Source of the DNA: a virus
Taxonomy: Duplodnaviria > Caudoviricetes
Reading direction: 5' to 3' (one strand)
DNA length: 27,511 nucleotides
Virus record (IMG/VR): IMGVR_UViG_3300027373_000017
Location: 1 to 27,511 of that record
Shown: positions 1-24,800 of the stretch, piece after piece
How the letters are laid out: the number at the start of each line of letters is the position of its first letter
Numbering within the stretch: the stretch's first letter is position 1
Made by a program: the position numbers and the translations under genes
The notes under the pieces: generated by a model
What the model was told of the DNA's origin: nothing
What the model saw: the letters and a program-made list of their open reading frames with translations, nothing else
The model's database searches: none

Positions 1-121
1 CAACCAGGCGAAGACATTGAGACGGATGGACGCGGACAGTTTGAGCCGGGAGCAGTGGGAATTGGTGGACGCGGCCGGGCTGCTGGAAGAGATTGATCTT
101 GAATTGGGGCGGGTTGGAGAA
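1..121. repeat. Terminal direct repeat, left copy (identical to 27391-27511); circular contig overlap
   Basis: Bases 1-121 (caaccaggcg...gggttggagaa) match 27391-27511 exactly, and the reading frame is continuous across the join. Confidence 0.97.
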
Positions 122-1537
122 GCCTGGCGAGTGGCGGAAGAGGCGATTGGGAAGGCTGAGGGGGTGAGTTTACGCGGGGCGAAGAGCGGGCATTACCTGG
201 GAAACGGGATGGTTTACGAAAAAGCCGGCGGCAAGTTTTATGAGGTAGCGAGGAACGGAAGCCGGGGGAGTGAGATCAGCACGAAGGAGATAAGAGCGCG
301 CGGGGCCGAGGTGCTGGTTCCGATGGGTGAGGCGTATAAACTGCAGGTGGAGTACGAACGGCTGCTGGCGCAACGGGGTGAGGTAGAAGAGATTGGGTTG
401 CAGATCGGTGAGAAGGTAAAAGAGGAAGGGAAGCCGGGCGGAGAAGATGGAAGGGTGTTGTACCAATTGGCGGCGGATGGTGACGCGGCGGTAGCTGGGG
501 CGGAAAATGATCTTCAGCAATTGAGGAAGTACAAGCGAGTTTGGGACCGAATCGGTGTGGAAAGCCCAGGGTTCAAGGAGTGGTTTGGGGACTGGGAAGC
601 TACAAAGAACGCGGTTATTTATGAAAGTATTATGCCAAAAGAGTATTCATCGAGTGAATTATTTCCGAACACAGATTTTGAAGCGTTGAAAAATTATACA
701 AAAGAAACCTACCGATCGTTAACACAACATACAGCTGTGAATATGAACGACGGCGTCACTATCAGTTTCCCAAATAGTGCATTAGGAAAAACCATATTTG
801 GAGCTGACAAGAACAGTTATAAGTGGAGGATCATTGGAGATCTGCCGGAACTCTTCGCTAATAGCGTTCGTCTCATTTCTGATATTGGTAGACCAGAAAA
901 AGTAAGTATAGATCTGGTTCATCGATATGGCACAAAAATATCAATTGATGGAAACATTATGAATGTCGCCATAGTAGTTCGAGAGGTTAACACTAATAAT
1001 GTAAAAAAATATTATTATGATTATTTTGTCGATGATAAGACAACAAATAAATCCACTGCATCAGCACTCCCTTACAAGGGAGGTGATACAGTGGAATCTA
1101 CTTTCACTATATCACGCTGGTTATCGGAAGTCAATGATCACTCGATTGTTGTGGATGGAGATGGGAGACCGCTACTTATGAGCCAGGTCGATGGGAACGG
1201 ACTTCAATTCAAAGTCCGTCAAGCTGGGGATGTTGGTGATGGGTATTATTTGAACGCGAGGAATGTCATTGATGACGTGGATGTTAATGGACGGGATATT
1301 CCGACCTTGAAGGCGGAAGGGTACGATGGGATCAGGACCGAGGATGGGTTTATTGTATTCGATGAAAACCAGGTAAAAAGTATTGGAAATCGGGGAACGT
1401 TCTCGAAGACTGATCCGAGAGTGCTTTACCAGGAAGGCGGGCAGATGCCTTTATACCCGGTTGGCGGATATGACCAGCCCCAACTTACATTGGGGTTTCG
1501 CTTCGCTCAAACAGAACGGATTTATTCCCACGGGTGA
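2..1537 (+). CDS. C-terminal part of the giant polyvalent virion protein (continuation of 21851-27390 across the circular join); ART-PolyVal-like domain split by an LPD3-like domain
   Basis: Same frame as the ORF starting at 21851. Motifs FKEWFGDWE...SIVVDGDGRPL and LKAEGYDGI...IVFDENQVKSIGNRGTF resemble ART-PolyVal. The intervening AVNMNDGVTISF...IIGDLPELF...HRYGTKISIDG...VVRE...YYYDY resembles LPD3. The track's start at 17 is an artefact of the window edge. Confidence 0.85.
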   Translation, partial: NQAKTLRRMDADSLSREQWELVDAAGLLEEIDLELGRVGEAWRVAEEAIGKAEGVSLRGAKSGHYLGNGMVYEKAGGKFYEVARNGSRGSEISTKEIRARGAEVLVPMGEAYKLQVEYERLLAQRGEVEEIGLQIGEKVKEEGKPGGEDGRVLYQLAADGDAAVAGAENDLQQLRKYKRVWDRIGVESPGFKEWFGDWEATKNAVIYESIMPKEYSSSELFPNTDFEALKNYTKETYRSLTQHTAVNMNDGVTISFPNSALGKTIFGADKNSYKWRIIGDLPELFANSVRLISDIGRPEKVSIDLVHRYGTKISIDGNIMNVAIVVREVNTNNVKKYYYDYFVDDKTTNKSTASALPYKGGDTVESTFTISRWLSEVNDHSIVVDGDGRPLLMSQVDGNGLQFKVRQAGDVGDGYYLNARNVIDDVDVNGRDIPTLKAEGYDGIRTEDGFIVFDENQVKSIGNRGTFSKTDPRVLYQEGGQMPLYPVGGYDQPQLTLGFRFAQTERIYSHG

Positions 1538-1728
1538 GGTATTCGATTCAGGCTGGAATGGTGATGCGAAACAAGGGATCCATTTCTTCTTGTAGCTCGG
1601 ATTTTAAATGACGGTTCCACCAATGAATAATTAATTTTGCCCAAAGAACCTGATAGTTGGCACTTTATGAGGTTAATTTACCGATCCATTAAAATATACG
1701 TCTGAGATAAACTATTAAGAAAATTAAA

Positions 1729-1779
1729 GGCGCCCTCGGCGGGATTCGAACCCACAACCCACAGCTTAGAAGGCTGTTG
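1729..1779 (-). other. att core: 3' fragment of tRNA-Arg(UCU), not an intact tRNA
   Basis: Minus strand reads CAACAGCCTTCTAAGCTGTGGGTTGTGGGTTCGAATCCCGCCGAGGGCGCC: anticodon arm with TCT, T-arm GGTTCGAATCC and the 3' acceptor strand. The D-arm and the 5' acceptor strand (expected GCCCTCG) are absent. Confidence 0.85.
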
Positions 1780-4500: not shown

Positions 4501-4579
4501 ATCTACAAAATGTAGATTGGGACTTGACATTTATTATTGTATATCATAAAATGTAGATAAATATCTACATTATGTTGTA
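4501..4579. promoter_or_regulatory. Genetic switch: rightward promoter TTGACA(4524-4529)-17-TAAAAT(4547-4552) with palindromic operators
   Basis: Perfect palindrome ATCTACA-AAA-TGTAGAT (4501-4517). ATGTAGATA-AA-TATCTACAT (4551-4570) overlaps the -10/+1. Degenerate copies at 4542-4558 and 4563-4579. Confidence 0.85.
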
Positions 4580-6512: not shown

Positions 6513-6745
6513 TCTGTAGAAAAGAATTGGCAGCCGGCAAGGTATTGATCATTGAGGGTAATGTGCGGATCCCGGAGGGGGAGACCTTTATTGGTGAGGA
6601 CATGGCAGGGCGGGAACATGTGTTGAGGGTGATTGAGCAAAGGTTCAAAGATTACCAGTGGTATTGGTGTTATGAGCATATTTGCCGGGTCATCGATGAT
6701 GAGTTTGAGAGGATGTACCTGGAAGAGGATGACTATGTTCAATAA
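6509..6745 (+). CDS. Hypothetical protein
   Basis: ATGA overlap with the upstream stop; RBS GAGGTG. Confidence 0.65.
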   Translation: MICRKELAAGKVLIIEGNVRIPEGETFIGEDMAGREHVLRVIEQRFKDYQWYWCYEHICRVIDDEFERMYLEEDDYVQ

Positions 6746-6868
6746 AAGGCAGATGGACTTCAGTTGGTCCCACGGGGATACACTTCGTTATATCTGGTGT
6801 TATGAGCATATTTGCCGGGTCATCGATGATGAGTTTGAGAGGATATACCTGGAAGAGGATGACTATGT
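6665..6868 (+). repeat. 74-bp direct repeat (6665-6738 and 6795-6868, one mismatch)
   Basis: tggtgttatgagcatatttgccgggtcatcgatgatgagtttgagaggatRtacctggaagaggatgactatgt occurs twice, 130 bp apart. Confidence 0.95.
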
Positions 6869-6875
6869 ACTATAG
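6735..6875 (+). CDS. 46-aa ORF created by the duplication (shares its C-terminus with 6509-6745)
   Basis: RBS GAGGA plus ATG at the end of repeat copy 1. MFNKRQMDFSWSHGDTLRYIWCYEHICRVIDDEFERIYLEEDDYVL. Confidence 0.45.
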   Translation: MFNKRQMDFSWSHGDTLRYIWCYEHICRVIDDEFERIYLEEDDYVL

Positions 6876-7095
6876 CCGGCTGAAGGATAAGTGTATTGAG
6901 CGGAAGGACGCGGATATCAAGGTGGAGGCCTTCCGGGAGTGGTATGAGACGCGTAACGATCAGGAGCGGGCGCAGATTGATTATCTGCGGGCGGAAGTGG
7001 CGCGATTGAAGGTGCCGAATTTGGGTGATATTGGGATTGATGAACTGGTGGCGAGCCTGATTTTGAAAGCCGACCGGCGGGTTGGGTTGGTATGA
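6865..7095 (+). CDS. Hypothetical protein
   Basis: RBS plus ATG at the end of repeat copy 2 (MYYSRLKDK...). The stop overlaps the next ATG. Confidence 0.65.
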   Translation: MYYSRLKDKCIERKDADIKVEAFREWYETRNDQERAQIDYLRAEVARLKVPNLGDIGIDELVASLILKADRRVGLV

Positions 7096-7840: not shown

Positions 7841-8233
7841 ATGCCAATACCGAGTTGGATCGAGCATAAGAGCGCGTCACCCGAATTGATCAGCGAGGTA
7901 ATACGGGCGATGAAGACCCATTACCGCGGGAAAGACAAGGCAACAACGAAAGAACGGCTGATGGCGGATTTGTTCGGATTGCACAAGGGAGATCCGAATT
8001 ATGAAAACACAGAGCGGATATTCAGGCGGTGTGTTGAGATCGCGAATTTGGAATATGGGGCGCTGATTGTGAGTGATGAGAGCGTTGGTTATTGGTGGGC
8101 GATAAGCCTGGAGGATGGGTTGGTAAGCGCCGAGCGCCGTTTGAGCCGGGCGAAGACGATGTTTGATAACGCCAAGAAGTTGGTGGATAACCTGAAAACA
8201 ACGTATGGCGGTCAGATGGGATTGGGATTGTGA
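7841..8233 (+). CDS. Winged-helix-like DNA-binding protein
   Basis: RBS AAGGAGG before ATG 7841. HYRGKDKATTKERL...ERIFRRCVE...LIVSD..VGYWWA is a common phage wHTH pattern. Confidence 0.65.
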   Translation: MPIPSWIEHKSASPELISEVIRAMKTHYRGKDKATTKERLMADLFGLHKGDPNYENTERIFRRCVEIANLEYGALIVSDESVGYWWAISLEDGLVSAERRLSRAKTMFDNAKKLVDNLKTTYGGQMGLGL

Positions 8234-9368: not shown

Positions 9369-9505
9369 TGAAAAAACGTATCATGGATGATTTTCTAACC
9401 TTGATCCTGGTGAGTGATAAGCCGTGCATGTGGACTTATCGGCGGATGATGGAGCGGACGGTGAAGGAATGGCCGAATGACAAGGATATGGTGGAGAAGA
9501 GATGA
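9368..9505 (+). CDS. 45-aa hypothetical protein (not in ORF track)
   Basis: TGATG and ATGA overlaps on both sides; MKKRIMDDFLTLILVSDKPCMWTYRR... Confidence 0.5.
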   Translation: MKKRIMDDFLTLILVSDKPCMWTYRRMMERTVKEWPNDKDMVEKR

Positions 9506-9726
9506 GCGAATTAAGCCCAAAATCGAGGACGGAAGAAGCGGCGCGGAAATTGTTAACTCTGACGATTGAGGATTTACGCATGCGAATGGCGCATACAACG
9601 GATTTGATGGTGATAAGAGCCGCGATCAGGATGATTGACCTGGGAGATATGCCGGGTTATTTTGGCGGTGTTAGCGCGCGGAAATTGTTGCAGGCACGCT
9701 TGAGTAAGCTGGAAAGAGGCGGATGA
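9502..9726 (+). CDS. Hypothetical protein
   Basis: 74 aa, translationally coupled to its neighbours. Confidence 0.65.
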   Translation: MSELSPKSRTEEAARKLLTLTIEDLRMRMAHTTDLMVIRAAIRMIDLGDMPGYFGGVSARKLLQARLSKLERGG

Positions 9727-10091
9727 TGGATATATGGTTAGCGGTTGACCAAAACGGGGATGAACACTTTTTTATCAAAAAACCAGTAAGGAGACAACAT
9801 CCTCTTCTTCCTAATGGCGATGATTATTGGATTTCTGGGGAAAACAATGGTTATCAACTTGCGATAGGGATGATAAAAGCACTTCTTGGCTACAACATTA
9901 CTTGGCAGGACGAACCTGTCGAATGGGATGGCGCGCCTGAAAAATGCGTATGGAAGCACGGAGATGACGGTTATGAAAATTTTTGGAATACATCATGTCA
10001 AGACAGTTACCTCGAAAGTATAAATTATGGTTTTAAATATTGTCCATCATGCGGTAGAGAGATTGTAACCATACGTAAGGAGAAAGAATGA
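9723..10091 (+). CDS. Hypothetical protein with C-terminal zinc-ribbon-like motif
   Basis: CVWK...WNTSC...FKYCPSCGREI; AT-richer than its flanks. Confidence 0.7.
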   Translation: MMDIWLAVDQNGDEHFFIKKPVRRQHPLLPNGDDYWISGENNGYQLAIGMIKALLGYNITWQDEPVEWDGAPEKCVWKHGDDGYENFWNTSCQDSYLESINYGFKYCPSCGREIVTIRKEKE

Positions 10092-10486
10092 CCGAGTTTA
10101 ATGATAATTTTGAATTTATTTTCAAGGATTATAAGATTGATGATGAGTTATTTGCTTTGTATCATAGCGGGATAGGTTCAGTTGTTGTCTTTACTTTAGG
10201 GAAAAACGGTGTTGATCAATCTATTGAACTTAGCCCAGAGAGAATGTTGAAGATTCATAAACTGTTTCTATCCTTGAAAATGAAAGCTGACCCAAAAACG
10301 GGTACTGTGGAAGATTTTATTGTTGGGGATGGGGTAGAAGGTGTATTTTATCCAGAACGTAGAACCGTAAGGTTGCAGACCTATTCCAACGGAGAAATGG
10401 AAATGGAGATCCACTTGGATGAAGAAATGGTTTATGCAATCGCGCTGAAAATGGGGATTATTAAGAATGGCAAGGCGGTACCGTGA
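10088..10486 (+). CDS. Hypothetical protein
   Basis: RBS AAGGAG, ATGA overlap. Confidence 0.7.
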   Translation: MTEFNDNFEFIFKDYKIDDELFALYHSGIGSVVVFTLGKNGVDQSIELSPERMLKIHKLFLSLKMKADPKTGTVEDFIVGDGVEGVFYPERRTVRLQTYSNGEMEMEIHLDEEMVYAIALKMGIIKNGKAVP

Positions 10487-10839
10487 ATACCTGGTCCCAG
10501 TTGATTGTACCGATGCCGCCGAGCGCGAACCGCTATTGGAGACACGTGGGCGGGCGGGTGTATGTGAGCAAGGAAGCCAGGGATTACCGCGATCTGGTCG
10601 GCTGGATTGGGGCAAGCGCCGGGGTAGAATCGCACGATGGGGATGTAAGGGTGAGTGTGATTGTGCGGCGGAAGCATAAACGGGGGGATATAGATAATTA
10701 CCTGAAGGTGTTGTTTGACGCGCTGCAGGGAGTGGTGTATGTGAATGACAAGCAGATCAAGAAGGTTGAGGTTGAGATCATCGAAGGCGCTGAGGAAGGG
10801 GAAATATTGGTGTGGGTCGAGGATTTGGTGAGGGACTGA
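10483..10839 (+). CDS. rusA: RusA-family Holliday junction resolvase
   Basis: PMPPSANRYWR...RGDIDNYLKVLFDALQGVVYVNDKQI contains the DxDNxxK..D catalytic motif. Confidence 0.92.
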   Translation: MNTWSQLIVPMPPSANRYWRHVGGRVYVSKEARDYRDLVGWIGASAGVESHDGDVRVSVIVRRKHKRGDIDNYLKVLFDALQGVVYVNDKQIKKVEVEIIEGAEEGEILVWVEDLVRD

Positions 10840-11109
10840 ATGCCAAACGGACAATTGAAAAAGCAAGAGCGAGCCGAGAGCCGGCGAGAAGAGTTGTTGG
10901 AATTAATTGACGGAATGTGGAAGAGGGAAGCGCGATCCCCTACCATGCGGGAATTATGCTGGACTATGGGTACCAGATCGACCAGTCATATCTCCTGGAT
11001 GCTTAAGCGGCTGGCGGAGGAGGGTAGATTGAAACGATTTACCGGCGGGCGGGTGAGGTATGTGCCGTATTGGGTGATTGATTTGATCATCGAGGGTAAC
11101 GAGAAATGA
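10840..11109 (+). CDS. Stand-alone LexA-type DNA-binding (wHTH) domain protein
   Basis: SPTMRELCWTMGTRSTSHISWMLKRLAEEGRLKR parallels LexA PSVREI...STSVV..L..LE..G; no peptidase domain. Confidence 0.75.
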   Translation: MPNGQLKKQERAESRREELLELIDGMWKREARSPTMRELCWTMGTRSTSHISWMLKRLAEEGRLKRFTGGRVRYVPYWVIDLIIEGNEK

Positions 11110-11300
11110 GCCGGCAGACACTCCAAAAGAGAGAGGGTATCGATCCTATATTGAGCGAGGCACAAATCGAGGAGCTGATGACTGATCTACGAAAGGTGAT
11201 GGAGTGGCGGTTTGGGAGTGTGACGATCGAGGTGGTGTACGGGAAGGTGAAGCGGATCCAGGTGATGATCAGTAAGGATTTGCGGGAAGGGAGTGGGTAG
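11106..11300 (+). CDS. DUF2292 (YezD/OscA)-like small protein
   Basis: LRKVMEWRFGSVTIEVVYGKVKRIQVMIS fits the FG.V.I.V..G.V..I pattern. Confidence 0.6.
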   Translation: MSRQTLQKREGIDPILSEAQIEELMTDLRKVMEWRFGSVTIEVVYGKVKRIQVMISKDLREGSG

Positions 11301-11303
11301 GCG

Positions 11304-12131
11304 ATGGTTGAACTTTATGGAGTTTGTAGAATTTGTGGAGAAATTGGCAGCGGAACCGAATTTAATAATTGGGTAAGAGATACATTTACTAATTATGATC
11401 ATTTGTTTCCTGGTGAAATTATTTGTAGTTCTTGTGCTTTTTGGTTTGATCAGCGATCGGTTGAGTTGCAAGTCAAGATGGGTAAAGATAAGCCACAACG
11501 GATGCAGAATTATTCACATTTTGTGGTGGATGGGATGTGGATCCCGTTGAGTAAGAGTAATAAGGCTGAGATGAAGCGGCTGCTATTGGAGGGTAACTTT
11601 CCTGAATTGGCGGCGATCGCGGACAGCGGGCAAAAGCATTTGGCTTTCAGGGCGAATCGAAATCCGACAGGGCAGGAGAGCGGATGGGTGCAGTTTGAGG
11701 AGACTTCGGTTTATGTTGAGCGCGGTAAGTTAGAGTATTTATTAGTGGTGATCGAGGATCTGTACCGGGTGTTCAGCAAGGGCGAGATAGAGAGTGGTAG
11801 TTACGGTACGGGTCGGATATTGGAGTTTGGGATCGAGGCGTGGCGCGCGGCTGATGAGCGGTTGAAACCGTTCAGAGCTGCGTCTTTATTTAAGTTGGCC
11901 ATCTTTTTGGCGCAAAGGAGTGTGGATGATGGACATACAGGGGCCGGAGGCTTTGACGGCGACACTGCTGAGGACGATCTGGAAGGGGATATCGCCGGAT
12001 TACAAAAGCAGGTACAGAATGACGATTTGGGAGCAGTACGAGAACGAGATCAGATCGGCGGCGTATACAAGCAGCCTTCCGCTTTTTGTCAGCCGACTTT
12101 GTTCGAGGTTGGGGGCGACGTTGGGAACTAA
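11304..12131 (+). CDS. csf1: Type IV CRISPR-Cas large subunit Csf1 (Cas8-like)
   Basis: N-terminal CRIC...TFTNYD.L...CSSC zinc motif and an IADSGQKH motif; first gene ahead of cas11/csf2/csf3. Confidence 0.75.
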   Translation: MVELYGVCRICGEIGSGTEFNNWVRDTFTNYDHLFPGEIICSSCAFWFDQRSVELQVKMGKDKPQRMQNYSHFVVDGMWIPLSKSNKAEMKRLLLEGNFPELAAIADSGQKHLAFRANRNPTGQESGWVQFEETSVYVERGKLEYLLVVIEDLYRVFSKGEIESGSYGTGRILEFGIEAWRAADERLKPFRAASLFKLAIFLAQRSVDDGHTGAGGFDGDTAEDDLEGDIAGLQKQVQNDDLGAVRERDQIGGVYKQPSAFCQPTLFEVGGDVGN

Positions 12132-12303
12132 TGATACAGATAGGGGATTGGCCGAGGCGGCGCTGAGCAGTTTGGATGACAAGACAGCATTGAAACTGCT
12201 GAGGGATCAGACAACGTATCTGGTGCTTCTGGTAAGGGTCGACAACCAGGCGAAACGAGATGAATGGAAAGAAAAGGTTGAAAAACGAGAGGAAGCGAAA
12301 TGA
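11929..12303 (+). CDS. cas11: Type IV-B small subunit (Cas11-like, all alpha-helical)
   Basis: RBS AAGGAG at 11915-11920 (start 11929 or 11926). Helical ~124-aa protein (IWEQYENEIRSAA...LPLFVSRLCSRL) between csf1 and csf2, the Cas11 position in IV-B. Confidence 0.7.
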   Translation: MDIQGPEALTATLLRTIWKGISPDYKSRYRMTIWEQYENEIRSAAYTSSLPLFVSRLCSRLGATLGTNDTDRGLAEAALSSLDDKTALKLLRDQTTYLVLLVRVDNQAKRDEWKEKVEKREEAK

Positions 12304-13265
12304 AAAATTACGTTTTTGAAGGTGAAGTGTTGGCGTTGACGTCGATCAGCCATATTGGCGAGACGCATGGCATCAATAGTATGTTGCGGAGAGAAAAGAT
12401 CATCCAAAGGGATGGCAGCGTTGAAGAGGTGCCGGTTATCAGCGGGAACGCGATGAGGGGTATTTTGAGGGATCGCGGGATGCTGCACATGTTGAAGGCG
12501 CTTGGGTATGGTGTTAATGAGGAAACTGGGGAGATTCGCGGATTGAGTTTGCCGGCGTTCTATTTTTTGTTCAGCGGTGGCATTTTGAGCAAGCAGTCTG
12601 GTAAGGGTATTGATGTGGATGAGGCCAGGCGGTGGAGGAAGGTGATCCCGCTGGTTTCGATCTTTGGTGGGGCGATGGGAAACCAGATTATGCCTGGTAA
12701 GGTTAAGATCGGGAAGATGTTACCGATCTGCGAGGAGACGTCGCATTTGGTGCCGGCGCAGTATGTTGGTGATGATCTCCATTCGATATGGGATGTTACG
12801 CAGCAGGAGCCATATACACGGCGGGATGACGAGAAGAACGATCATTTAAGGCAGTTGATAGAACCAGAAGTTCGGGGCTTGTTGGACTTTGCGAAGGCAG
12901 AGAAGCGTGCGAAGGGTGATGAGATCGCTGGAGAAACCGGGCAGAGCCAACAGATGCGGTATTACGTGGAGACTTTGGCGGCTGGAACTCGATTTTATTG
13001 GGATATAGTGTTGGATGATGTGACCGATCTGGAGTTTGACGCGTTTTGCATCGTGCTGGCAGAGTTTGGGCGGTTCCCGTATATCGGTGGTAAGAGCGGC
13101 GTCGGACACGGTAAGATCGCAGTGAAGTTTGATCATTGGCATGAGATAAACCCACGACTGAGTCAGGGCGGGGCTGAGTTGGATACGAGTTTAGGAACGA
13201 GGTATATGGAGCATCTACGGGAGAATGGGGATGATATCAGGGAATTGATCAATGGCCTCAAATGA
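12300..13265 (+). CDS. csf2: Type IV Cas7-like backbone subunit Csf2 (RAMP)
   Basis: LTSISH..., VPVISGNAMRGILRD, FLFSGG, PLVSIFGGA, ETLAAGTRF and the G-rich loop YIGGKSGVGHG are hallmark Cas7/Csf2 motifs. Confidence 0.9.
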   Translation: MKNYVFEGEVLALTSISHIGETHGINSMLRREKIIQRDGSVEEVPVISGNAMRGILRDRGMLHMLKALGYGVNEETGEIRGLSLPAFYFLFSGGILSKQSGKGIDVDEARRWRKVIPLVSIFGGAMGNQIMPGKVKIGKMLPICEETSHLVPAQYVGDDLHSIWDVTQQEPYTRRDDEKNDHLRQLIEPEVRGLLDFAKAEKRAKGDEIAGETGQSQQMRYYVETLAAGTRFYWDIVLDDVTDLEFDAFCIVLAEFGRFPYIGGKSGVGHGKIAVKFDHWHEINPRLSQGGAELDTSLGTRYMEHLRENGDDIRELINGLK

Positions 13266-13938
13266 TGTGCCGATGCGGGTTACGGCGTATATGCGATCCG
13301 GCATTGTGAGCGATGAGTGGTTTCCGCTGGATGGGATCTTGTTATCGCAGTGGGTGCGGGATGATCTGGGGGTGCGGGATGTTACCGTACCAGGCGCTTC
13401 GCTGCTGGCGGAACCGAAGGGGGAGCCGATGCGCGGAGGGAGGATGCCGATCAAGGTGACGCACAATAAGGATTGGTATTATCACTGCAGTTGGGCGGAG
13501 TGGGGTCCGTATGTGGATGGGACGGAGTATTGGAATAAGAGGTTCGACAACCCTCTTGCGGATCTGATCGAGTTTGATGGCCGGCGGGGTAAGATCGATA
13601 CGAGCGCGGCGATGTATAAGGCGTACAGGATGCCGATGTATTATCGGTCGGCGTTGTGGGTGCGATGGTATTTGGTCGGGGATATTGAGAAGATCCGGTA
13701 TTTGTTGGCGACGGTGACGCACATCGGGAAGAAGATCAGCCAGGGATGGGGGCGGGTGGCGAAGTGGGAGGTGGATGAGGTGGCTGAGGACTGGTCCATA
13801 TGGCGGGATGGTAAGTTGATGCGCGGGATACCGGTGTATAACTTGCCAAAGGATGTGCGGGCGACGCGGCGAGTGAGTTACGGAGTGAGACCGCCATACT
13901 GGGACAAACGTAATCATATGGAATTGGTGGTTGAGTAA
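13252..13938 (+). CDS. csf3: Type IV Cas5-like subunit Csf3 (RAMP)
   Basis: PMRVTAYM...PLDGIL, WYYHCS, YKAYRMP, WYLVGD...IRYLL...HIGKKISQGWGRVAKWEV and RPPYW are typical of Csf3. Confidence 0.88.
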   Translation: MASNDVPMRVTAYMRSGIVSDEWFPLDGILLSQWVRDDLGVRDVTVPGASLLAEPKGEPMRGGRMPIKVTHNKDWYYHCSWAEWGPYVDGTEYWNKRFDNPLADLIEFDGRRGKIDTSAAMYKAYRMPMYYRSALWVRWYLVGDIEKIRYLLATVTHIGKKISQGWGRVAKWEVDEVAEDWSIWRDGKLMRGIPVYNLPKDVRATRRVSYGVRPPYWDKRNHMELVVE

Positions 13939-13967
13939 TCGTTCCGGCTAATGAGCTGGGGAACGAT
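13938..13967 (+). other. Strong stem-loop in the csf3-cysH gap
   Basis: ATCGTTCC/GGAACGAT outer stem with an inner GGCT-AATG-AGCT hairpin; no U tail. Confidence 0.6.
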
Positions 13968-13993
13968 CGGCATTCGGTGAGCGTTAGAGAGGT

Positions 13994-14770
13994 ATGATGG
14001 AGCGAGACGGGTATTTGCTTTACAGCCAGACAAGAGGGTACCAGAAGCGGGTGAGTGGCCTGCATGTTTTGGTTGATTCTTTTTTTGATCGAGCCACATC
14101 TCCATATATATCTATGAGTTTTGGCAAAGATAGTTTGGCGATGGCGCATTTAATTCTGATTAATAGGCCGCAAGTACCACTGGTGTATGTTAATTGCGGG
14201 AAATATGATGAGTGGCCGGACACTCCGAGGGTTATAGAGCAGTTTTTAGCGACGCACAAAGGGTGCGAATTTATTGAGCTGCAAGGTCCATCGATCTGGG
14301 AATATTACGAGGAGGTTGGGTGGTACTTACAGGATGAGGAGAGCGAGAAGGCGGAACGCGGCGCGCAGCGAAGATATTCGGAAAGTTTGGGAGATTTGCT
14401 CGGTGCATGGGCTGAGCAGAATGGTATGGATGGTAGTTTTATCGGAATGCGTAAATCCGAAAGCAGAATCCGTAGTCGGCTATTGATAACCAGGGGAAAC
14501 ACATATTTCGCGAAAACGCGAAATCAATGGGTATGTGCACCGATGGCTGATTGGAATGGAAAAGACATTTGGGCAACCATATATAGTAATGATTTACCCT
14601 ATAACGAATTATATGATCTTATGCCACAAGGCAGGGAGTTAGCCCGCAATGGGGCTATGTTTGGTACCCGATCAGCGCGTTATGGGAGATTAGCATTTCT
14701 TAAAAGAGCGTACCCGGAGCTGTTTTATGAGTTCGCGGGTACGTATCCAGAAGTAAGGAATTATGTGTAA
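13994..14770 (+). CDS. cysH: CysH-like (PAPS reductase fold / adenine nucleotide alpha-hydrolase) accessory protein of type IV-B
   Basis: PP-loop SMSFGKDS, FIGMRKSESRIR and PMADWNGKDIWATI...LPYNELYD. Lacks the C-terminal ECGLH. Confidence 0.85.
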   Translation: MMERDGYLLYSQTRGYQKRVSGLHVLVDSFFDRATSPYISMSFGKDSLAMAHLILINRPQVPLVYVNCGKYDEWPDTPRVIEQFLATHKGCEFIELQGPSIWEYYEEVGWYLQDEESEKAERGAQRRYSESLGDLLGAWAEQNGMDGSFIGMRKSESRIRSRLLITRGNTYFAKTRNQWVCAPMADWNGKDIWATIYSNDLPYNELYDLMPQGRELARNGAMFGTRSARYGRLAFLKRAYPELFYEFAGTYPEVRNYV

Positions 14771-15391
14771 TTATTTCCGACCTGGTTTAGGGCGGTGGTC
14801 GAGGTAATGGTTAAACCCATCATAAGGGATCAGCCAATCTCGGCCAATTTTACGGGCGCCTGGAATATATCCATGTTTTGCGGCGTGGCGGACAGTGCGA
14901 TCGTTAATCGATATCCCTGCCTCTCTGGCATAATCAATGGCGCCATGTACGGTAGTCTCATTAAGCATGATGCCTGTAACCGGTGGGCGCCCAGGGATGT
15001 AGCCAATTGTCGCTCCGTAATTCCAGTGTCCAGACTGATCACTCTCCGCGAGTATTTTATCCGCCCAACTATCAGGTAACAGATAACCTAGATCCTGGAT
15101 TATGGTTAATGTACGTTTGAGACTGCTCGGTATGGTACTGGATGGACCATCATAGTCATACCAGATCCCAGTATAAGTGTCCTCGGCGACCTTGTGCCAG
15201 GCAGTATTTGACATAAGTTTGCCTCCACCGAACGATACCAGGGGAGGGGTGTCTATTGGTCGTGCGAACAAAGTATCATTGTATGGGTTGTAGTGAGCGA
15301 TACCGAACCGCCCGAGATCATCAACTACAACGTATTGACGGATTACCGCTGATAGATCTGGCCAATAGTATTGATTAGAGGTTGCGTTCAT
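14771..15391 (-). CDS. Protein with C-terminal MerR/excisionase-like HTH (HTH_17-type)
   Basis: AREAGISINDRTVRHAAKHGYIPGARKIGRDWLIP...RPKPGRK; RBS AAGGA. Its stop abuts the cysH-like stop. Confidence 0.75.
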   Translation of the reverse strand: MNATSNQYYWPDLSAVIRQYVVVDDLGRFGIAHYNPYNDTLFARPIDTPPLVSFGGGKLMSNTAWHKVAEDTYTGIWYDYDGPSSTIPSSLKRTLTIIQDLGYLLPDSWADKILAESDQSGHWNYGATIGYIPGRPPVTGIMLNETTVHGAIDYAREAGISINDRTVRHAAKHGYIPGARKIGRDWLIPYDGFNHYLDHRPKPGRK

Positions 15392-16009: not shown

Positions 16010-16078
16010 TAGGCAATTTGGAGAAAAAAATATTTTAAGGTTTCGTTCTATTTAATGTTCTAAAAATGATAATAGTTG

Positions 16079-16121
16079 TATAATAGGGTGAGTAGAGCCT
16101 GACAGAAACAGGATAATCCTG
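16079..16121 (+). promoter_or_regulatory. Putative late promoter (-10 TATAAT, no clear -35) and structured leader
   Basis: TATAAT at 16079-16084. Alternative hairpins CCTG-ACAGAAA-CAGG and CAGGA-TAA-TCCTG precede a terminator. Confidence 0.55.
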
Positions 16122-16123
16122 CG

Positions 16124-16154
16124 GGGCACGCGTATATTCGCGTGCCCTTTTTTT
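16124..16154 (+). terminator. Intrinsic terminator upstream of the late operon
   Basis: GGGCACGCG-TATATT-CGCGTGCCC followed by T7. Confidence 0.9.
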
Positions 16155-17453: not shown

Positions 17454-18894
17454 AGTGATCGCTGACCTTCCGCTGGTACAGGCGCGCCAGGCGAAGTTAT
17501 TGGAGGCGTGTGGATTTAAATGCGCACCAGTTGGCGGATCGCACGATAAGGTGGCGATGTGGCAGGTGACGGGGGAGCGTGGGCCGGCGGTGACGGATTT
17601 GATTGGGTATGGCGGGGCGGCATACGGCGGCAAGACGTACGGCAATTTGATTCTGGCACGCGTGGCGGCGACCTTGTGGCCGGGAATTCAGATCGCGTTC
17701 TTCCGGCGGACGTACAGCCAATTGGACGGACCTGGGGCGGCGATGCAAACAGCGTATGAGGTATTTGGATCGGCGGCAACCGCGACTGATGGCGGAAAAG
17801 AGTGGAAGTTTGAAAACGGGAGTGTGTTCTATTTCCGGTATGCCCAGAACGACAAAGATAAATACAACTATCAATCCCAACAGATCGACTTATTGATTTT
17901 AGATGAAGCGACCCATTTTAGCTGGGGGATCGTGGATTATTTATTGACCCGTAATAGAGCCAGCGGGAACTGGGGAAACTACCGGCCGTTTACAGTGATG
18001 ACGAGTAACCCGGGCAATATAGGGCATGTATGGTACAGCCAATTGTATGATCTGGAAAAACGGAAAGGGGAACACGAGCAGGTTAAAACGGTAACGAACC
18101 AGAATGGACGCAATAGCCGGGTGTATTTTATTCCGGCATTTTTGGAGGATAACCAGATCGGGGTGAGCCGAGATCCGGGGTATGAGGGACGTTTGATGGA
18201 GCGCGACCCGGAGGTGGCGAGGGCGTTGCGTTATGGGGATTGGAGCGTGTTTGCCGGGCAGGCATTTGCCGGCTGGACCAGAGAGCGGATCGCATGTAGA
18301 GCTTTTGACATACCCGAACACTGGCCGAGGTGGCGAGCATTGGATTATGGCTACGTTCATCCGTTTACGGCGGGATGGTTCGCGATGGATCCTACCACGC
18401 GGCGGGTATATGTGTACAAGGCGATGTTGAAGAGCGGATTGACGGACGTTGAACAGGCGCGGGTGATCAAGCAGATGACGGCGCCTGATGAGCGCCCGGC
18501 GGCGACGTATGCCAGCCCGGACATGTGGGCACGCAAGAGCGCGGGGAACAAAATATTTACGAGCGTGGATGAATACAAGGATGAAGGGGTGGCGTTAACG
18601 CGGGCGGATGATGACCGGCTGGGTGGAAAGAGGAAGCTGGATCGGTTACTGGCGGATCAGGCGGACGGGATGCCGGGGTTGATGGTGTTTGAGGATTATT
18701 ACCCGGTGTTTAAGTGCATGGAGACGCTGGTGAGGAGTGAGAGAAATCCGGAGGATGTTGAGAAGGTGGATGGGGATGACGCCTATGACATGCTGAGGTA
18801 CGGACTGACGAACCTCGATCCGCCGGCAAGACGGGCGCCGGGTGAGGTGAAGGTGAAGAGGGTGAATCCGATGAGCGGCATGAGGGCGTTGTAG
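17338..18894 (+). CDS. terL: Terminase large subunit
   Basis: Walker A GYGGAAYGGKT, Walker B LLILDEATHF, motif TSNPG, nuclease ALDYGYVHPF and DDAYDMLRYG. Start uncertain (17320, 17338 or 17413). Confidence 0.95.
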   Translation: MESNSSLPPSLRLLHLWPAEDKAELMNRAEIKSQAGTNKVIADLPLVQARQAKLLEACGFKCAPVGGSHDKVAMWQVTGERGPAVTDLIGYGGAAYGGKTYGNLILARVAATLWPGIQIAFFRRTYSQLDGPGAAMQTAYEVFGSAATATDGGKEWKFENGSVFYFRYAQNDKDKYNYQSQQIDLLILDEATHFSWGIVDYLLTRNRASGNWGNYRPFTVMTSNPGNIGHVWYSQLYDLEKRKGEHEQVKTVTNQNGRNSRVYFIPAFLEDNQIGVSRDPGYEGRLMERDPEVARALRYGDWSVFAGQAFAGWTRERIACRAFDIPEHWPRWRALDYGYVHPFTAGWFAMDPTTRRVYVYKAMLKSGLTDVEQARVIKQMTAPDERPAATYASPDMWARKSAGNKIFTSVDEYKDEGVALTRADDDRLGGKRKLDRLLADQADGMPGLMVFEDYYPVFKCMETLVRSERNPEDVEKVDGDDAYDMLRYGLTNLDPPARRAPGEVKVKRVNPMSGMRAL

Positions 18895-18957
18895 GTAGAG
18901 GGTAGCGGGTAGTAGGTAGAGGGTAGTAGGTAGAGGGTAGAGGGTAGGCGGTAGAGG
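18894..18957 (+). repeat. Nine tandem heptamers, consensus GGTAGNN
   Basis: TAG at 18896, 18903, 18910, 18917, 18924, 18931, 18938, 18945 and 18952 (period 7). Confidence 0.9.
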
Positions 18958-18979
18958 TTAAACAGGAAACGGAGAAAAT

Positions 18980-20692
18980 ATGGCTACGAAAAAATTGAGT
19001 ATGGACGAGTTGAAGAAAATCCAGGATCAGGCGCGGCGGTTGGTGAGCCAGAACAGTGAACGGGATTTGATGTTTGATGAGCTGCAGGATATGTATTGGA
19101 TGGAGACGAGCGAGACGGTTAATAAGCGTGATACGGCAGATGTAAAGATGACGATCAGCCCGAGCGCCAGAAATGAGGTACTGGGGATGGTGCGCTTGCT
19201 GACAACCAATGATCCGCACTACATAGCGAGCGCCGAAACTGGTGACCCGGACAAGGTGGAGAAGGCTTTGAATAACATCCTTAAACGATCTGATGAGGTG
19301 ACTTTGACCAAGCTGACCACTGAGGCGGCGCGATCGGCGGTATTGTACAGCGATGTGCATTTGATGATCGAATTGGTGGATGATATGTTGGAGGTGGACG
19401 GCATTCCGGAATACGAGAAGCGCCGGCTGGAAGATATACGATCCAGAACGCCTTTTCTGGTGAGCGCGATCAACCCGCGGGAAGGTTACCCGGTATTTGG
19501 TCGGACGGGGATGAGGGCGTATTTACGCAAGTACAAAGCCCTGGGCGCGGATATCAGCGAGCGGTGGGGTACGGAGGGATTGGATGAAGATGAGGAATAT
19601 ACGGTTTATGACTGGTATGGGATGGAAAATCGGGCGGTGTGGGTTGAGGAAAAGAGCGTCCCGTTGATGTTTGCCGAGCATGGGATGAGCCGAATCCCGA
19701 TTGTGGTGATGATCAGCGATGGTACCAATTTATTCCGGGATGAGGAACACAAGCGTCATCCGTTTTTGTACGCGAAGTGGAAGGGTGAATGGTGGAAGCG
19801 GGAGAATTTGTTATATACGACCTTGTTCACGAGCATGTTTGAGCGAGGCACCGGTCCACTGGTGGCGATTGATCCGGAGAGCTTAGGACAGGACGGGGTG
19901 CTGGATGTGAATTACGCGGGACCGTTTAGATATATTACCGCCAAAGCCCAACTGCTGAATGACAAAGCGTTTGACGCGGATTTGTTGGGGGCGCGCGGGT
20001 TGTTGGATCAGGTGAGCGGGGAGAGCACCATATACAAGCAGACCCTGGGAGAGAACATAGGCGGGAGTAATACCGCGTACAGCACATTGGCCATGTTGAG
20101 CCAGAGCGGACGTTTGCCCCTGGTGAGTTCGCAAGAGTGCATAGGAGCGGCGTTCCGGGAGATGGGCAACATCATCATCCGTTGGATAAAGGCTGAGAAC
20201 ATCAAGAACCCGTGGATCAAGCCGAGTGAGATTGGGGATGATTTGGAACTGGAATGCACAATGGAAGTTAAGCTGCCCCAGGATATGTTCAGGAACGCGC
20301 AGATCGCGGCGGGATTGAAGGGGATTGTGAGTACGGAATGGATGCACACCAATTTACTGCAGATTGATGACAGTAATGAGATGCGCTATCAGGTGTGGAG
20401 TGAGGCGGCGGCGGATACGGTATTCCAGTTGGAGATGCAGAAGTTGACCGAACAAGCCAAACAAGCCTTTATCGCGGCGCAACAACAACAGCAGATGGCG
20501 ATGTCCCGCTCCGCGCCTACGGCTGCTTCGGGGATTCCTTCGTCCATGCCTCAGTCACAAGGTGGTGGTCCTCAGCAGGGAATGGCGCAAGGGCAACCTC
20601 CCCAGTTTATTCAAAACGGAGGAGGGGCGAGGTTGCCAACTTTGAATCAGAGCGGGGAGCAACTACCTTTGAGCGGCCCGCGAGGAGAGTGA
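18980..20692 (+). CDS. Portal protein (podovirus-like head-tail connector)
   Basis: 570 aa directly after terL, with helical/beta alternation (FLVSAINPRE.YP, IPIVV) and a Q/P/G-rich C-terminal tail typical of P22/T7-like portals. Called mainly by synteny. Confidence 0.8.
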   Translation: MATKKLSMDELKKIQDQARRLVSQNSERDLMFDELQDMYWMETSETVNKRDTADVKMTISPSARNEVLGMVRLLTTNDPHYIASAETGDPDKVEKALNNILKRSDEVTLTKLTTEAARSAVLYSDVHLMIELVDDMLEVDGIPEYEKRRLEDIRSRTPFLVSAINPREGYPVFGRTGMRAYLRKYKALGADISERWGTEGLDEDEEYTVYDWYGMENRAVWVEEKSVPLMFAEHGMSRIPIVVMISDGTNLFRDEEHKRHPFLYAKWKGEWWKRENLLYTTLFTSMFERGTGPLVAIDPESLGQDGVLDVNYAGPFRYITAKAQLLNDKAFDADLLGARGLLDQVSGESTIYKQTLGENIGGSNTAYSTLAMLSQSGRLPLVSSQECIGAAFREMGNIIIRWIKAENIKNPWIKPSEIGDDLELECTMEVKLPQDMFRNAQIAAGLKGIVSTEWMHTNLLQIDDSNEMRYQVWSEAAADTVFQLEMQKLTEQAKQAFIAAQQQQQMAMSRSAPTAASGIPSSMPQSQGGGPQQGMAQGQPPQFIQNGGGARLPTLNQSGEQLPLSGPRGE

Positions 20693-20696
20693 TTGA

Positions 20697-20915
20697 ATGA
20701 TTGATGCTGAGAAAATGGAAGACGCGTTGATGTTTGGCCAGGCGGAAATTGAGAACTGGCGGAAACAGTTTGAACGGGATTGGCAGGGAACGAAGCAGGC
20801 AACCTTGATCAAGGGTTTGTATGGGCGATTGACCGATGAGGTAAAGGAAGATTTGAAACAGACGGATCCGGCAGGGTTTGCGGAATTTAATAAGTACATG
20901 GAGAAGAAGAGATGA
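20697..20915 (+). CDS. Small hypothetical virion-operon protein
   Basis: 72 aa, RBS GAGGAG, coupled to the next gene. Confidence 0.75.
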   Translation: MIDAEKMEDALMFGQAEIENWRKQFERDWQGTKQATLIKGLYGRLTDEVKEDLKQTDPAGFAEFNKYMEKKR

Positions 20916-21850: not shown

Positions 21851-24800
21851 ATGGCGACTGGTCCTTCGGCGTGGGATTTAAAACAGGCACGACTAAAAGC
21901 AATGCGAATGGCGAGACTGGGGAAGTTACCCGGGTTTGGCGGTGTGGCAAAAGGCGAAGGCGCGATCAACTATACAGTACAGGCAGGGGATAGCTGGGAA
22001 AGCATCGCCGGCATGTTTGGAGGAGATCAGCGCAAGGCGTACTGGCTGGCCAATAAAGCAGGGTACAGCCCGTTTGATGTATTACAAGCCGGGACACAAA
22101 TCAAAGTACCGAACGGGATCAATGGGGACTGGTCGCCCTATATCAATGAGAATTTCTTTACAGGAATTAAATACAACGATTTACAAGAAGGTAATCGGGT
22201 GGACGGGTACCGCTTTGAGCGATATGACCCAAAGAACCCGCAAGATCGGCCGTGGACATCAATTGACAGCGATTGGTTAGGAAGTAAATTTGGGGGTGTA
22301 TTGGCAACCCCAAACTACACCCCGAATTATTGGGCGAACCCGGCCAACGTCGTGTATTGGAATAACTTGATCGATACCCAGGCGATCCCCGGTGATAGCT
22401 GGTTGGACGAAAATACCCAGAAATTCATCAAAGATACGTATGCCTATATGGAAATGCGGAACGGGTTCAAACCAAATACAGAATGGGGATATTTACCGGA
22501 CGGAGACCCGAATTGGGGACAATTGCAGGAAATGCCGGCGCCCCCGGAGATTATCTTTGGAGAGAACGGGCAGGTAGCCAACCCATTGGCGGCGATTCCA
22601 GAAGTGGGTTATAACGCGGTAACCAATTGGCAAGACCCGTATTTCGACTGGTCGAAACTGAGCATTGAGCAGAAACAAGCCGTGATCAGAGATCCAAACT
22701 TTAATATGCACGATGTCGCAACTTATAACCAGGGAATGATCCTGAGCGATCCTGTATTTGATGAAGTTTGGAAAGAAATGCCTTACTTCCAACAAATCTA
22801 TCAAAAAAATCTATTTAGTTTATTTTCCAATCCCGCCACCGCTCCAGCAGCGCAAGGGATTGCTGCAGGGGTGATAACTACATCTGTAGCTGGACCGAAA
22901 GCTGGCATTATAGCAGCGCTTGCCCCGATGTTATTAGGGTATGGGCAACAATTGGGTGGAAAAGCAGGTGAAACCATGCAAGCACTTGGTATGGCATTAA
23001 ACAAACCCGCTGAATTAGTAGAACAGAAGGCCGGGCAAGACCAGATTTTACAAAATGTGGCAAAGTATCAAGCGAGTGGAGTAGAAATACCGGCATGGTT
23101 GGAACAAATTAGAAAGGGAACCTTTGATAACCTTATTAATGCGCGTGAACAGAATATTCAGCTCGCCGAAGAATTAAAGCCTTACTCTGATGAAGAAATC
23201 AAAGAAGCTGCCTGGCTGGCAGGTAAATTAGCTTATGAAACCGGTGAACTGTTCAGAGAGACTGGGGCAGGAGCTTCATACGAACTATTTGTTACTCAAT
23301 TGGGAGAAACGGAGAATATAAAGGTGCGAGAGGGTTATACCCTCACTGACGCTACTTTGCGATTATTGAAGGGAGAATCTTACGAATCTATAAGAGAAGA
23401 CTTTATTAGAGAGTATGGCATTACCGGTGTGATCGCTGATTTTGGATTGCAATCAGTATTTGATCCGCTGAATGTAGCCCCGGAGATAGCAGGTAAGGCA
23501 AGAGGTAAATACTTCAGTCATGAAACCGTAAAACTTAGCGGAGAGGCAGGGCGGTTGCGGGGATTGGCGGAGGCGGCTGAACGGGCTGGTAATTTGGCGG
23601 AGGCTGACCGTTTGCTGGGGCTGGCGAATGATACCCAGGCGAAGGCAAGGGTACAAGAACTGCATGCGACGGCGAACAAGATGGCGCCGACCTTGTTTGG
23701 GGAAAATATCTTGCTGTGGAGATCGGAAGCCGGCAGAGCCTTTGAAGGGTTGGCGAAGAGCGCGGACATGGAAACCTTGCGGGCGATGACGCCGAGTGAG
23801 CGGAAACTGGCGGGGCTGGACGCTGATTATGGGATCGCAAAACTGAAACCAACGCCGGCGGAGAGCAGCAAGAAAAGTTTCAGGAAAGCCTGGAGCGGAT
23901 TGTGGGGATTAAACCCGGAAGCGAAAGCGATCATTAATTTCAGAAACGCATCTAATAATATGGGTGTTCTGCTGGACTGGGTAAAAAGCGATGAAATGGT
24001 GGGCGCGAATTTAGAACGGGCATTAACCGCACTGGCTGAACGGGATATAAATACGCTAAAGGATATGGGGGCGACCTTTTTGGATAACCCGGAGTTCAAC
24101 ACAGTGCTGGAGAGTGTGCAGGGTTTTCTGCCCAAATTGAAAGAACTGAACGCGAACTTTGAACTGGCAAAAATACCGAGAGAACGATTTATGGCAATGA
24201 TGGAGATCGTAGGCGGGGATCCGGCAACTTTATTGAAGGGGTTGATCTCCAGTGATCCACGATCGATGTTCAAGGTGGTGGTGGATAAAGCCAGGCAACT
24301 GGATACACTGAGCGCCAAAGACTTTGTGGCGAAGGTGGATAGGGGCGAGATCAGCGCTGAGAGCATCGCCAAAGAGATGGGTGTATTTCGGGATGGCAGG
24401 GTGGCGTTGTACCCGGAAGAACATAAATACCTGGTAAAAGCCTATTATGGTGAGCATTTTGGGAATTGGGCTAAGAAAGCCTTTGGGATAACCAACGAGG
24501 GTGATTTCGCGGGGGTTTTGCGTGGTTTAAAGGGTGCCCAAAGCCTGGCACTGTTGGACATTAACCCGGCTTACATGGTGAATAACTTCATCAATAACCG
24601 GGTATTGATGGCTACCCACGGGGTAATGGGATTTACGACTGACGGGCGGATGAACAGCTGGTTCCAAGATTTTGGGGTAACTCCTGAGGGGGTCAGAGAA
24701 GGGTATGGCGCCTCGCAATACGACGCCGGGACAGTGAATAAACAAGCCAGTGATGGCTCGCTGGGGGTGAAAGAAGAAATTCCGGTAGATGGACAAAATT

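Follow-up and report, generated by a model that had tools for sequence, protein, structure and literature searches.

An array-less type IV-B CRISPR-Cas cassette in a small phage element carries an overprinted Csf1 tail with a predicted clamp-binding motif

The viral record IMGVR_UViG_3300027373_000017 (Duplodnaviria, Caudoviricetes), whose whole stretch of 27,511 nucleotides (nt) was analyzed and is called the window below, harbors a five-gene type IV-B CRISPR-Cas cassette. The frame of its large-subunit gene csf1 extends 206 nt into cas11 in a shifted frame, and the overprinted segment encodes a predicted disordered tail with the motif QPTLF, a putative docking site for the beta sliding clamp. 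An earlier reading of this DNA (the first-pass annotation) had seen the five-gene set and did not notice the tail.

Gene content of the cassette

The cassette and the features inside it are as follows (aa, amino acids; ORF, open reading frame; pLDDT, predicted local distance difference test score).

11304..12131, + strand: csf1, whole ORF (ORF list)
11304..11921, + strand: csf1 core, Cas8-like large subunit, aa 1-206, with a Cys8/11/41/44 zinc motif (PADLOC Csf1_0_IV, E 2.4e-21)
11914..11920, + strand: ribosome-binding site AAAGGAG of cas11, lying within csf1 codons (sequence)
11922..12131, + strand: C-terminal tail of Csf1 (aa 207-275), which overprints cas11 in a shifted frame (pLDDT <50)
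11926..12303, + strand: cas11, small subunit, ATG start (PADLOC Cas11_1_IV, E 1.2e-28, and alignment)
12090..12104, + strand: QPTLF, Csf1 aa 263-267, predicted beta-clamp-binding motif (sequence and family statistics)
12300..13265, + strand: csf2, Cas7 backbone (PADLOC Csf2_0_IV, E 1.8e-81)
13252..13938, + strand: csf3, Cas5 (PADLOC Csf3_0_IV, E 5.5e-54)
13994..14770, + strand: cysH-like PP-loop enzyme with SFGKDS and GxRxxESxxR motifs (PF01507 PAPS_reduct, E 2e-16)

The ORF coordinates agree with the five co-oriented genes described in the first-pass annotation, including a csf1 start 3 nt past the upstream stop codon. Its statement that the genes mostly overlap holds for three junctions (csf1/cas11, 206 nt; cas11/csf2, 4 nt; csf2/csf3, 14 nt), whereas csf3 and the cysH-like gene are separated by a 55-nt gap. 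PADLOC type IV profiles match four of the five proteins (Csf1, Cas11, Csf2, and Csf3; E 2e-21 to 2e-81) and the fifth has a PAPS-reductase fold, in line with the proposed type IV-B identity; the NCBIfam matches for csf2 and csf3 stay under the curated cut-offs (63 of 130 bits and 62.6 of 140 bits, respectively). In profile and structure searches, Csf2 and Csf3 match type IV Cas7 and Cas5 profiles as well as solved Csf subunits: Csf2 has its best solved relative in the type IV-B chain of PDB entry 7JHY (E 8e-27), and Csf3 matches 7XFZ_B, a Csf3 chain (E 2.4e-6). A PDB sequence search with Cas11 and Csf1 returned no significant match. The entry 11FS, labeled Cas7c, was also matched and presumably belongs to type IV-C. 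The predicted Csf1 model is confident over aa 1-206 and falls below a pLDDT of 50 over aa 207-275; its best fold match is chain 7XFZ_A of a type IV-A complex (Z 9.7, root mean square deviation 4.2, 179 residues aligned), a chain that we infer to be Csf1. The zinc-motif residues Cys8/11/41/44 are near-invariant or invariant in an alignment of 19 sequences.

The record closes into a 27,390-bp circle with a real 121-nt terminal repeat. Profile and repeat scans of this circle found no dinG/recD, cas10-like gene, cas6, cas1/2, or CRISPR array, as the first-pass annotation had reported, and no other cas profile matched in its 141 stop-to-stop frames of at least 75 aa. With csf1, cas11, csf2, csf3, and an adjacent cysH-like gene, the stretch is confirmed, at the level of gene content, to carry a complete array-less type IV-B set. 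An assignment to type IV-A or IV-C was rejected: there is no dinG, array, or HD-Cas10, and the large subunit is the 206-aa Csf1 core.

The residues S42, G44, K45, D46, S47, G151, R153, E156, R160, P183, and Y207 are invariant among 19 sequences of the CysH-like enzyme, which contain no invariant cysteine and no Fe-S motif. Its fold matches are PAPS reductases, FAD synthase, TtuA, and tRNA thiolases, and weak PADLOC matches point to BrxP (E 2e-5) and DndC (E 2e-3). The PP-loop pyrophosphatase fold is common to DndC, SspD, BrxP, and TdpC, and enzymes with related PAPS-reductase folds alter the DNA backbone in the Dnd, Ssp, BREX type 4, and Tdp systems (PMC12914056, PMC10853773; all literature is cited here from the accessible part of each source). 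Unlike these proteins, the CysH-like enzyme comes without invariant cysteine, Fe-S motif, or partner ATPase; no profile for a phosphorothioation-linked P-loop ATPase matched in the 141 frames of the circle. Phosphorothioation of the DndC/SspD/BrxP type is therefore unlikely. The absence of the cysteine has been noted for CasCysH, and substrate AMPylation was proposed (PMC8175902); adenylation alone is a possible activity of the window enzyme, as judged from its conserved residues.

An overprinted Csf1 tail with a clamp-type motif

Our scans for relatives returned 28 viral, 6 genome, and 80 metagenome loci, in overlapping sets. Counting the window, 46 distinct loci are of sufficient length for an assessment, and 43 of them have all five genes. 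We assembled a tail set of 89 loci in which the csf1 frame reaches cas11 in the same frame relation and which carry a Cas11 anchor, and reduced it to 60 loci at <85% nucleotide identity. The csf1 frame is open to the motif in 43 of these 60 loci as against 1.93 expected from synonymous Cas11 codon shuffles, a fraction that is raised by leaving out loci with another frame relation (all tail-less) and loci without the anchor. At control starts the same shifted frame is open in 6 of 60 csf2, 4 of 54 csf3, and 0 of 41 cysH cases. The pattern QxxL/M-F/L occurs in 34 of the 43 open and 4 of the 17 closed loci (Fisher p 1.8e-4, with p-values overstating independence because the loci share ancestry).

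Codon usage follows the second frame. The Cys codon that reads Phe in the shifted frame, TGT, is used in 32 of 42 open loci versus 134 of 365 in the background, whereas 11 of the 17 closed loci have TGC; the Leu codon lacks a final G in 31 of 32 cases versus 41%, and a stop lies within 4 residues of the motif in 27 of 43 (11.5 expected). Nucleotides vary across the loci, with the shifted-frame residues Q, L, and F kept. Among 119 database relatives of Csf1, the core end could be placed in 104 and tails of at least 45 aa were found in 94; 79 of these 94 scored tails contain the motif, compared with a mean of 3.5 after shuffling, and the commonest form is QLDLF (17 tails). The motif lies toward the end of the segment predicted to be disordered and has acidic flanks. 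At the sequence level, the open frame and the motif of the Csf1 tail are shown to be selectively maintained.

The window sequence QPTLF fits the beta-clamp consensus Q-phi-x-[L/M]-[F/L] (PMC11139829) and is placed in a segment predicted to be disordered; its proline at position 2 is also found in QPDLF of phage MuC, which was shown to bind the clamp (PMC12867686). The Csf1 tail is similar to the clamp clients Pol II, Pol IV, Pol V, MutL, Hda, and MuC, with their QL[SD]LF-type motifs, in that Q-x-x-L-F, flanked by acidic residues, is located close to the end of a tail predicted to be disordered. It differs from them in that a second frame of a neighboring gene encodes the motif, which sits on a Cas large subunit, and in that it is a prediction. 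Seven tails of intermediate length instead terminate in, or close to, a hexamer-like Q[LF]QI[PS]L located at a second position. We predict that the Csf1 tail docks on the host beta sliding clamp. A term search of the literature (including PMC11551745, PMC7038947, and PMC12669027, with most subscription papers and supplements outside its coverage) found no link between Csf1 and the clamp.

Several observations weigh against this reading. A quick tree was built from 81 distinct Csf2 rows, of which 52 carry a long tail, 11 carry a mid-length one, and 18 lack a tail; the tail-less state requires at least 2 changes on this tree and at fewest 8, its deepest rows are tail-less, and so is the nearest relative of the window (L039). 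By this distribution the tail is dispensable. Actinobacterial and archaeal IV-B loci (L036, L136-L140) are without such a tail and most of them keep the cysH-like gene, so that the core function does not require the clamp. The conserved Cas11 codons for NSLC seed the motif in part, and it persists in the 4 closed loci counted above, and the shared ancestry of the loci tempers the statistics. The window motif has Pro at position 2 where Leu is optimal, and QLQIPL carries Ile where the hexamer consensus has Leu or Met. Moreover, the solved IV-B filament contains RNA, not DNA (PMC7937560), and the literature covered reports no substrate or product of a IV-B CysH.

One might then regard the tail as a by-product of the csf1/cas11 overlap and the cassette as an ordinary IV-B passenger whose function is unrelated to the clamp. 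Repeated loss of the tail, in the nearest relative as well, and the fact that the motif letters partly follow from Cas11 residues speak for this. Yet the open frame, the choice of codons, and the place of the stop all deviate strongly from nulls and controls, and the shifted-frame Q, L, and F stay while the nucleotides vary; we consider a mere by-product very improbable. Alternatively, the tail could recruit or titrate the clamp for phage replication or late transcription, and CysH could make a nucleotide signal or modify a protein or tRNA rather than DNA. MuC uses QPDLF in this way for late transcription (PMC12867686), the CysH-like fold extends to FAD synthase and tRNA thiolases, and we found no polymerase or clamp gene on the circle. 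Such a hijack leaves the retention of the whole Cas7/Cas5/Cas11 scaffold unexplained, and tail-less relatives keep the same five genes, which makes it improbable in our estimate.

Clamp-related sequences were also seen elsewhere. A phage beta-clamp homologue is encoded 2.4 kb upstream of a csf1 ending in QLTLF (L017, 5248-6429, and the related L019). The tail-less locus L028 has QQDLF near the Cas11 C terminus, L014 (14855-15643) encodes a second, viral-type PAPS reductase ending in QMTF, and a 130-aa early protein of the window (7841-8233) ends in QMGLGL, a terminus resembling the hexameric clamp motif.

The phage element, its relatives, and the question of guides

The circle encodes a repressor/ribbon-helix-helix (RHH) switch, RecT-like, DnaD-like, and RusA proteins, followed by the cassette, a holin, terminases, and a portal-like protein; an initiator gene is present as well. 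It also encodes an LPD3 protein of ∼2,360 aa, and the 121-nt terminal repeat sits within a giant ORF that reads through the circle join. Two further features concern integration and expression.

1728..1776, - strand: attP-like core, the 3' part of tRNA-Arg(TCT) (48/49 nt identity)
4524..4552, + strand: sigma-70-like promoter with the best score (11 of 12), located at the repressor/RHH switch (sigma-70 consensus scan)

The promoter-like site lies at the divergent HTH_3 and RHH_1 genes and is the likely driver of the early gene run, at whose end the cassette is found. Plus-strand genes overlap or abut from 9502 to 13938, which makes a single early transcript plausible, and the gene order supports the earlier placement of the cassette in an early/replication gene run; the cassette would be co-expressed with the replication genes. 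The first-pass annotation held that it has no promoter of its own. The sigma-70 scan indeed has no plus-strand site between 10165 and 16003, but absence is not established by a scan that yields 12 sites overall versus 16.9 in shuffles.

Profile searches of the circle found no integrase, serine recombinase, major capsid, or tail gene, diverged forms of which could escape such profiles. Portal relatives in viral contigs were not confirmed, and an atlas search with a 311-aa late protein gave no usable match. The completeness of the record is estimated at 54%, and window positions 2300-23262 recur with 100% identity within a contig of 517,153 bases (L037). The premise of a closed and small molecule is weakened by these findings: the molecule may not be a whole autonomous genome, and an element with terminase and portal-like genes and without detected integrase, capsid, or tail genes is possibly helper-dependent or deleted. 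The attP-like core matches tRNA-Arg(TCT) at 48 of 49 nt in 2 of 401 genomes of the class searched (a class including Anaerolineaceae) and is unbroken in one contig of a run designated X1, which contains this DNA. The window's Csf2 clade is likewise present in 2 of 401 genomes of the class searched, 4 of the 6 genome records with this clade are labeled Chloroflexota, and a search of 121 genomes with the element DNA for a host gave short weak matches only. The clade is mostly viral and, going by these records, likely Chloroflexota-associated. We read this as a temperate, possibly helper-dependent element of an Anaerolineae host that would integrate into its genome.

Other features of the window include a 93-nt duplication in two small early genes (6665-6887) and a 7-nt GGTAGAG tandem between terminase and portal (18891-18958). 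Other X1 contigs at ∼24-fold depth share window positions 1-438, 1408-1517, and 16075-16153 with joints, possibly a relic of a related prophage.

Among known systems, the Mycobacterium sp. JS623 Csf complex (7JHY) and actinobacterial plasmid loci have the same csf1-cas11-csf2-csf3 order, a cysH-like partner, and no array or cas6. The window belongs to a separate clade, with ∼35% Csf2 identity to the best plasmid sequence and to the cultured Skermania phage SPI1, where Csf2 (35% identity) lies in a run of five similar-sized ORFs. Its Csf1 has the overprinted clamp-type tail, which is missing from the actinobacterial loci compared. Assembly of a ribonucleoprotein filament has been shown for the JS623 complex only (PMC7937560). 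IV-B loci on prophages and viruses have been published (PMC7038947; bioRxiv 10.1101/2023.08.24.554615), and hence cassette, phage location, and array absence are not new. As in the window, a full IV-B set is accompanied by a CysH-like gene on the viral genomes of Fuxivirus (bioRxiv 10.1101/2023.08.24.554615) and of prophage IV-B loci (PMC7038947). A mini-array and Cas4, neither of which is found in the window element, set Fuxivirus apart; the accessible parts of both accounts contain no clamp motif.

Neighbor genes differ between the phages that carry the cassette. In a survey of 150 of 153 picked neighbor ORFs from 33 loci, which had no background set, helicase, primase, or initiator genes were near 8 of 33 loci and DNA methyltransferases near 6 of 33. 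As neighbors vary, the cassette is a mobile five-gene unit, for which no linked guide was detected, and the earlier view that it is hard-wired into the early operon is correspondingly weakened. In one locus (L008, 11585-13126) a radical SAM gene directly follows csf3 at the place of cysH, and the Csf1 protein there ends in QLSLF. A convergent gene for a 206-aa excisionase-like helix-turn-helix protein follows cysH in the window (14771-15391, minus strand) and in L003 and L010. In a Thermococcus plasmid IV-B locus (L139, 4354-5097), the gene at the csf3 position is annotated Cas6, possibly a misannotation.

The first-pass annotation had expected any element-encoded guide in the intergenic gaps, for which we find no comparative support. 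Besides a 21-nt duplication, the circle has no CRISPR-like repeat pairs, and tandem and repeat scans of the window found no array or mini-array; the duplication (16948/17023) was rejected as an array since it duplicates the start of the terminase small subunit gene and folds no better than shuffles. Rfam returned a tRNA fragment only, and the window contains no run of at least 5 GGY-NN units of the kind that defines VIPR (GGY/NN repeats by a single RAMP gene). Long VIPR-like GGY-NN repeat arrays do lie beside a 194-208-aa ORF (phrog_4652) in two relatives (L005, 2461-3945; L016, 2156-2720), ∼3-7 kb from the type IV-B cassette of the same phage. The csf3-cysH gap folds unremarkably (z -0.63), and many relatives overlap genes there. 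Relative to shuffles, four gaps in the window show better folding (z -2.3 to -3.0), and at least two of these resemble ordinary terminators. The 350-nt flanks of relatives hold no common element: alignments were obtained for 2 of 1035 pairs upstream and for 4 of 703 downstream, and the aligning pairs are mostly plain shared genes or close kin. Of 94 distinct loci, many of them short, 2 have a CRISPR array (L009, 937-1200, 9 kb from csf2; L107, 11449-11650, 6 kb from csf2).

These data bear on a guided silencer, in which a specific host or phage RNA would be loaded and a competing element or host gene repressed at replicating DNA, as in nuclease-less IV-A. In its favor, Csf1, Csf2, and Csf3 resemble subunits of type IV-A in fold or sequence, IV-A1 complexes were found to slow down DnaX on the plasmids they target (PMC11551745), a mini-array exists in the Fuxivirus IV-B locus (bioRxiv 10.1101/2023.08.24.554615), and the four well-folding gaps could be taken as guide candidates. 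However, the circle has no dinG or cas6, the flanks no common element, the rare arrays are 6-9 kb off, and at least two of the gaps look like terminators. We judge this explanation to be unlikely.

CRISPR targeting of the phage can be seen in X1, whose contigs end in a CRISPR repeat on both sides of window positions 19076-19110 and 20738-20772 and, at 24003 and 26822, on a single side (∼23970-24003 and ∼26788-26821). The 5' flanks are TTT and TTC at the two-sided protospacers, and TTC at the one-sided ones if spacers are 34 nt long. From the repeat shape and the protospacer-adjacent motif (PAM), we take the array to be type I-C-like; a similar repeat, three mismatches off, occurs eight times in G001. 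All four protospacers are in the late region, and no match to a spacer was detected within the cassette. This DNA may itself derive from X1, whose array is not tied to a replicon. Judged by these spacer matches, CRISPR pressure on this phage exists.

Such pressure would be in line with an anti-CRISPR sponge, in which the Csf filament would soak up host CRISPR RNAs (crRNAs), the clamp tail would place it where Cascade and replicating DNA meet, and CysH might inactivate captured RNA by adenylation. The idea has been published before (PMC7038947, PMC7937560), and at least four window stretches abut the type I-C-like repeat with TTT/TTC adjoining. On the other side, the Mycobacterium IV-B complex shows no crRNA enrichment (PMC7937560), IV-B is negatively correlated with other CRISPR systems (PMC7038947, PMC7937560), spacers with canonical PAMs were acquired nonetheless, and the array is not tied to a genome in what may be the source of the DNA. 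A sponge also needs no enzyme, yet the CysH-like gene is kept in 43 of 46 loci. We regard it as unlikely. Of the three roles offered by the first-pass annotation (crRNA sequestration, RNA-guided repression, and RNA-scaffolded nucleic-acid modification), the last fits best, whereas the sponge leaves both CysH and the clamp motif unexplained.

A replication-linked role for the complex

We tentatively favor a mechanism in which the Csf filament, tethered to the clamp, enables the PP-loop CysH-like enzyme to adenylate or mark phage nucleic acid that has just been replicated. The overprinted Csf1 tail would dock on the host beta sliding clamp and thereby tether the Csf2-Cas11 filament to replicating phage DNA. 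The filament would present nucleic acid at the fork, DNA or RNA, to the CysH-like enzyme, which would adenylate or otherwise mark it, and the benefit would be protection from host nucleases. Csf2-Cas11 of the Mycobacterium IV-B complex assembles on heterogeneous RNA (PMC7937560). We infer tail translation, clamp binding, the DNA or RNA substrate at the fork, the chemistry, and nuclease protection; the complex likely acts on replicating phage DNA, not as an immune system. A more specific version, which we hold to be rather unlikely in all its parts, has Csf1 on the clamp, a Cas7-Cas11 filament that displays single-stranded nucleic acid where replication proceeds, and an enzyme that can be exchanged (a PP-loop adenylyltransferase, or radical SAM in some phages) and adds an undescribed shielding mark.

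The 2025 classification assigns type IV-B no demonstrated mechanism (PMC12669027), and the literature covered calls CysH key and reports no target. A selected clamp motif in an overlapping frame names a partner (DnaN), a place (replicating DNA), and a two-residue mutation. The element is a natural setting for this: it is a small phage in which neither a polymerase nor a clamp gene was found, and type I-C-like spacers match it. If the more specific version is true, a phage clade would have converted a class 1 CRISPR effector into a machine that modifies nucleic acid in step with replication, whose mark would shield progeny DNA from restriction and CRISPR nucleases.

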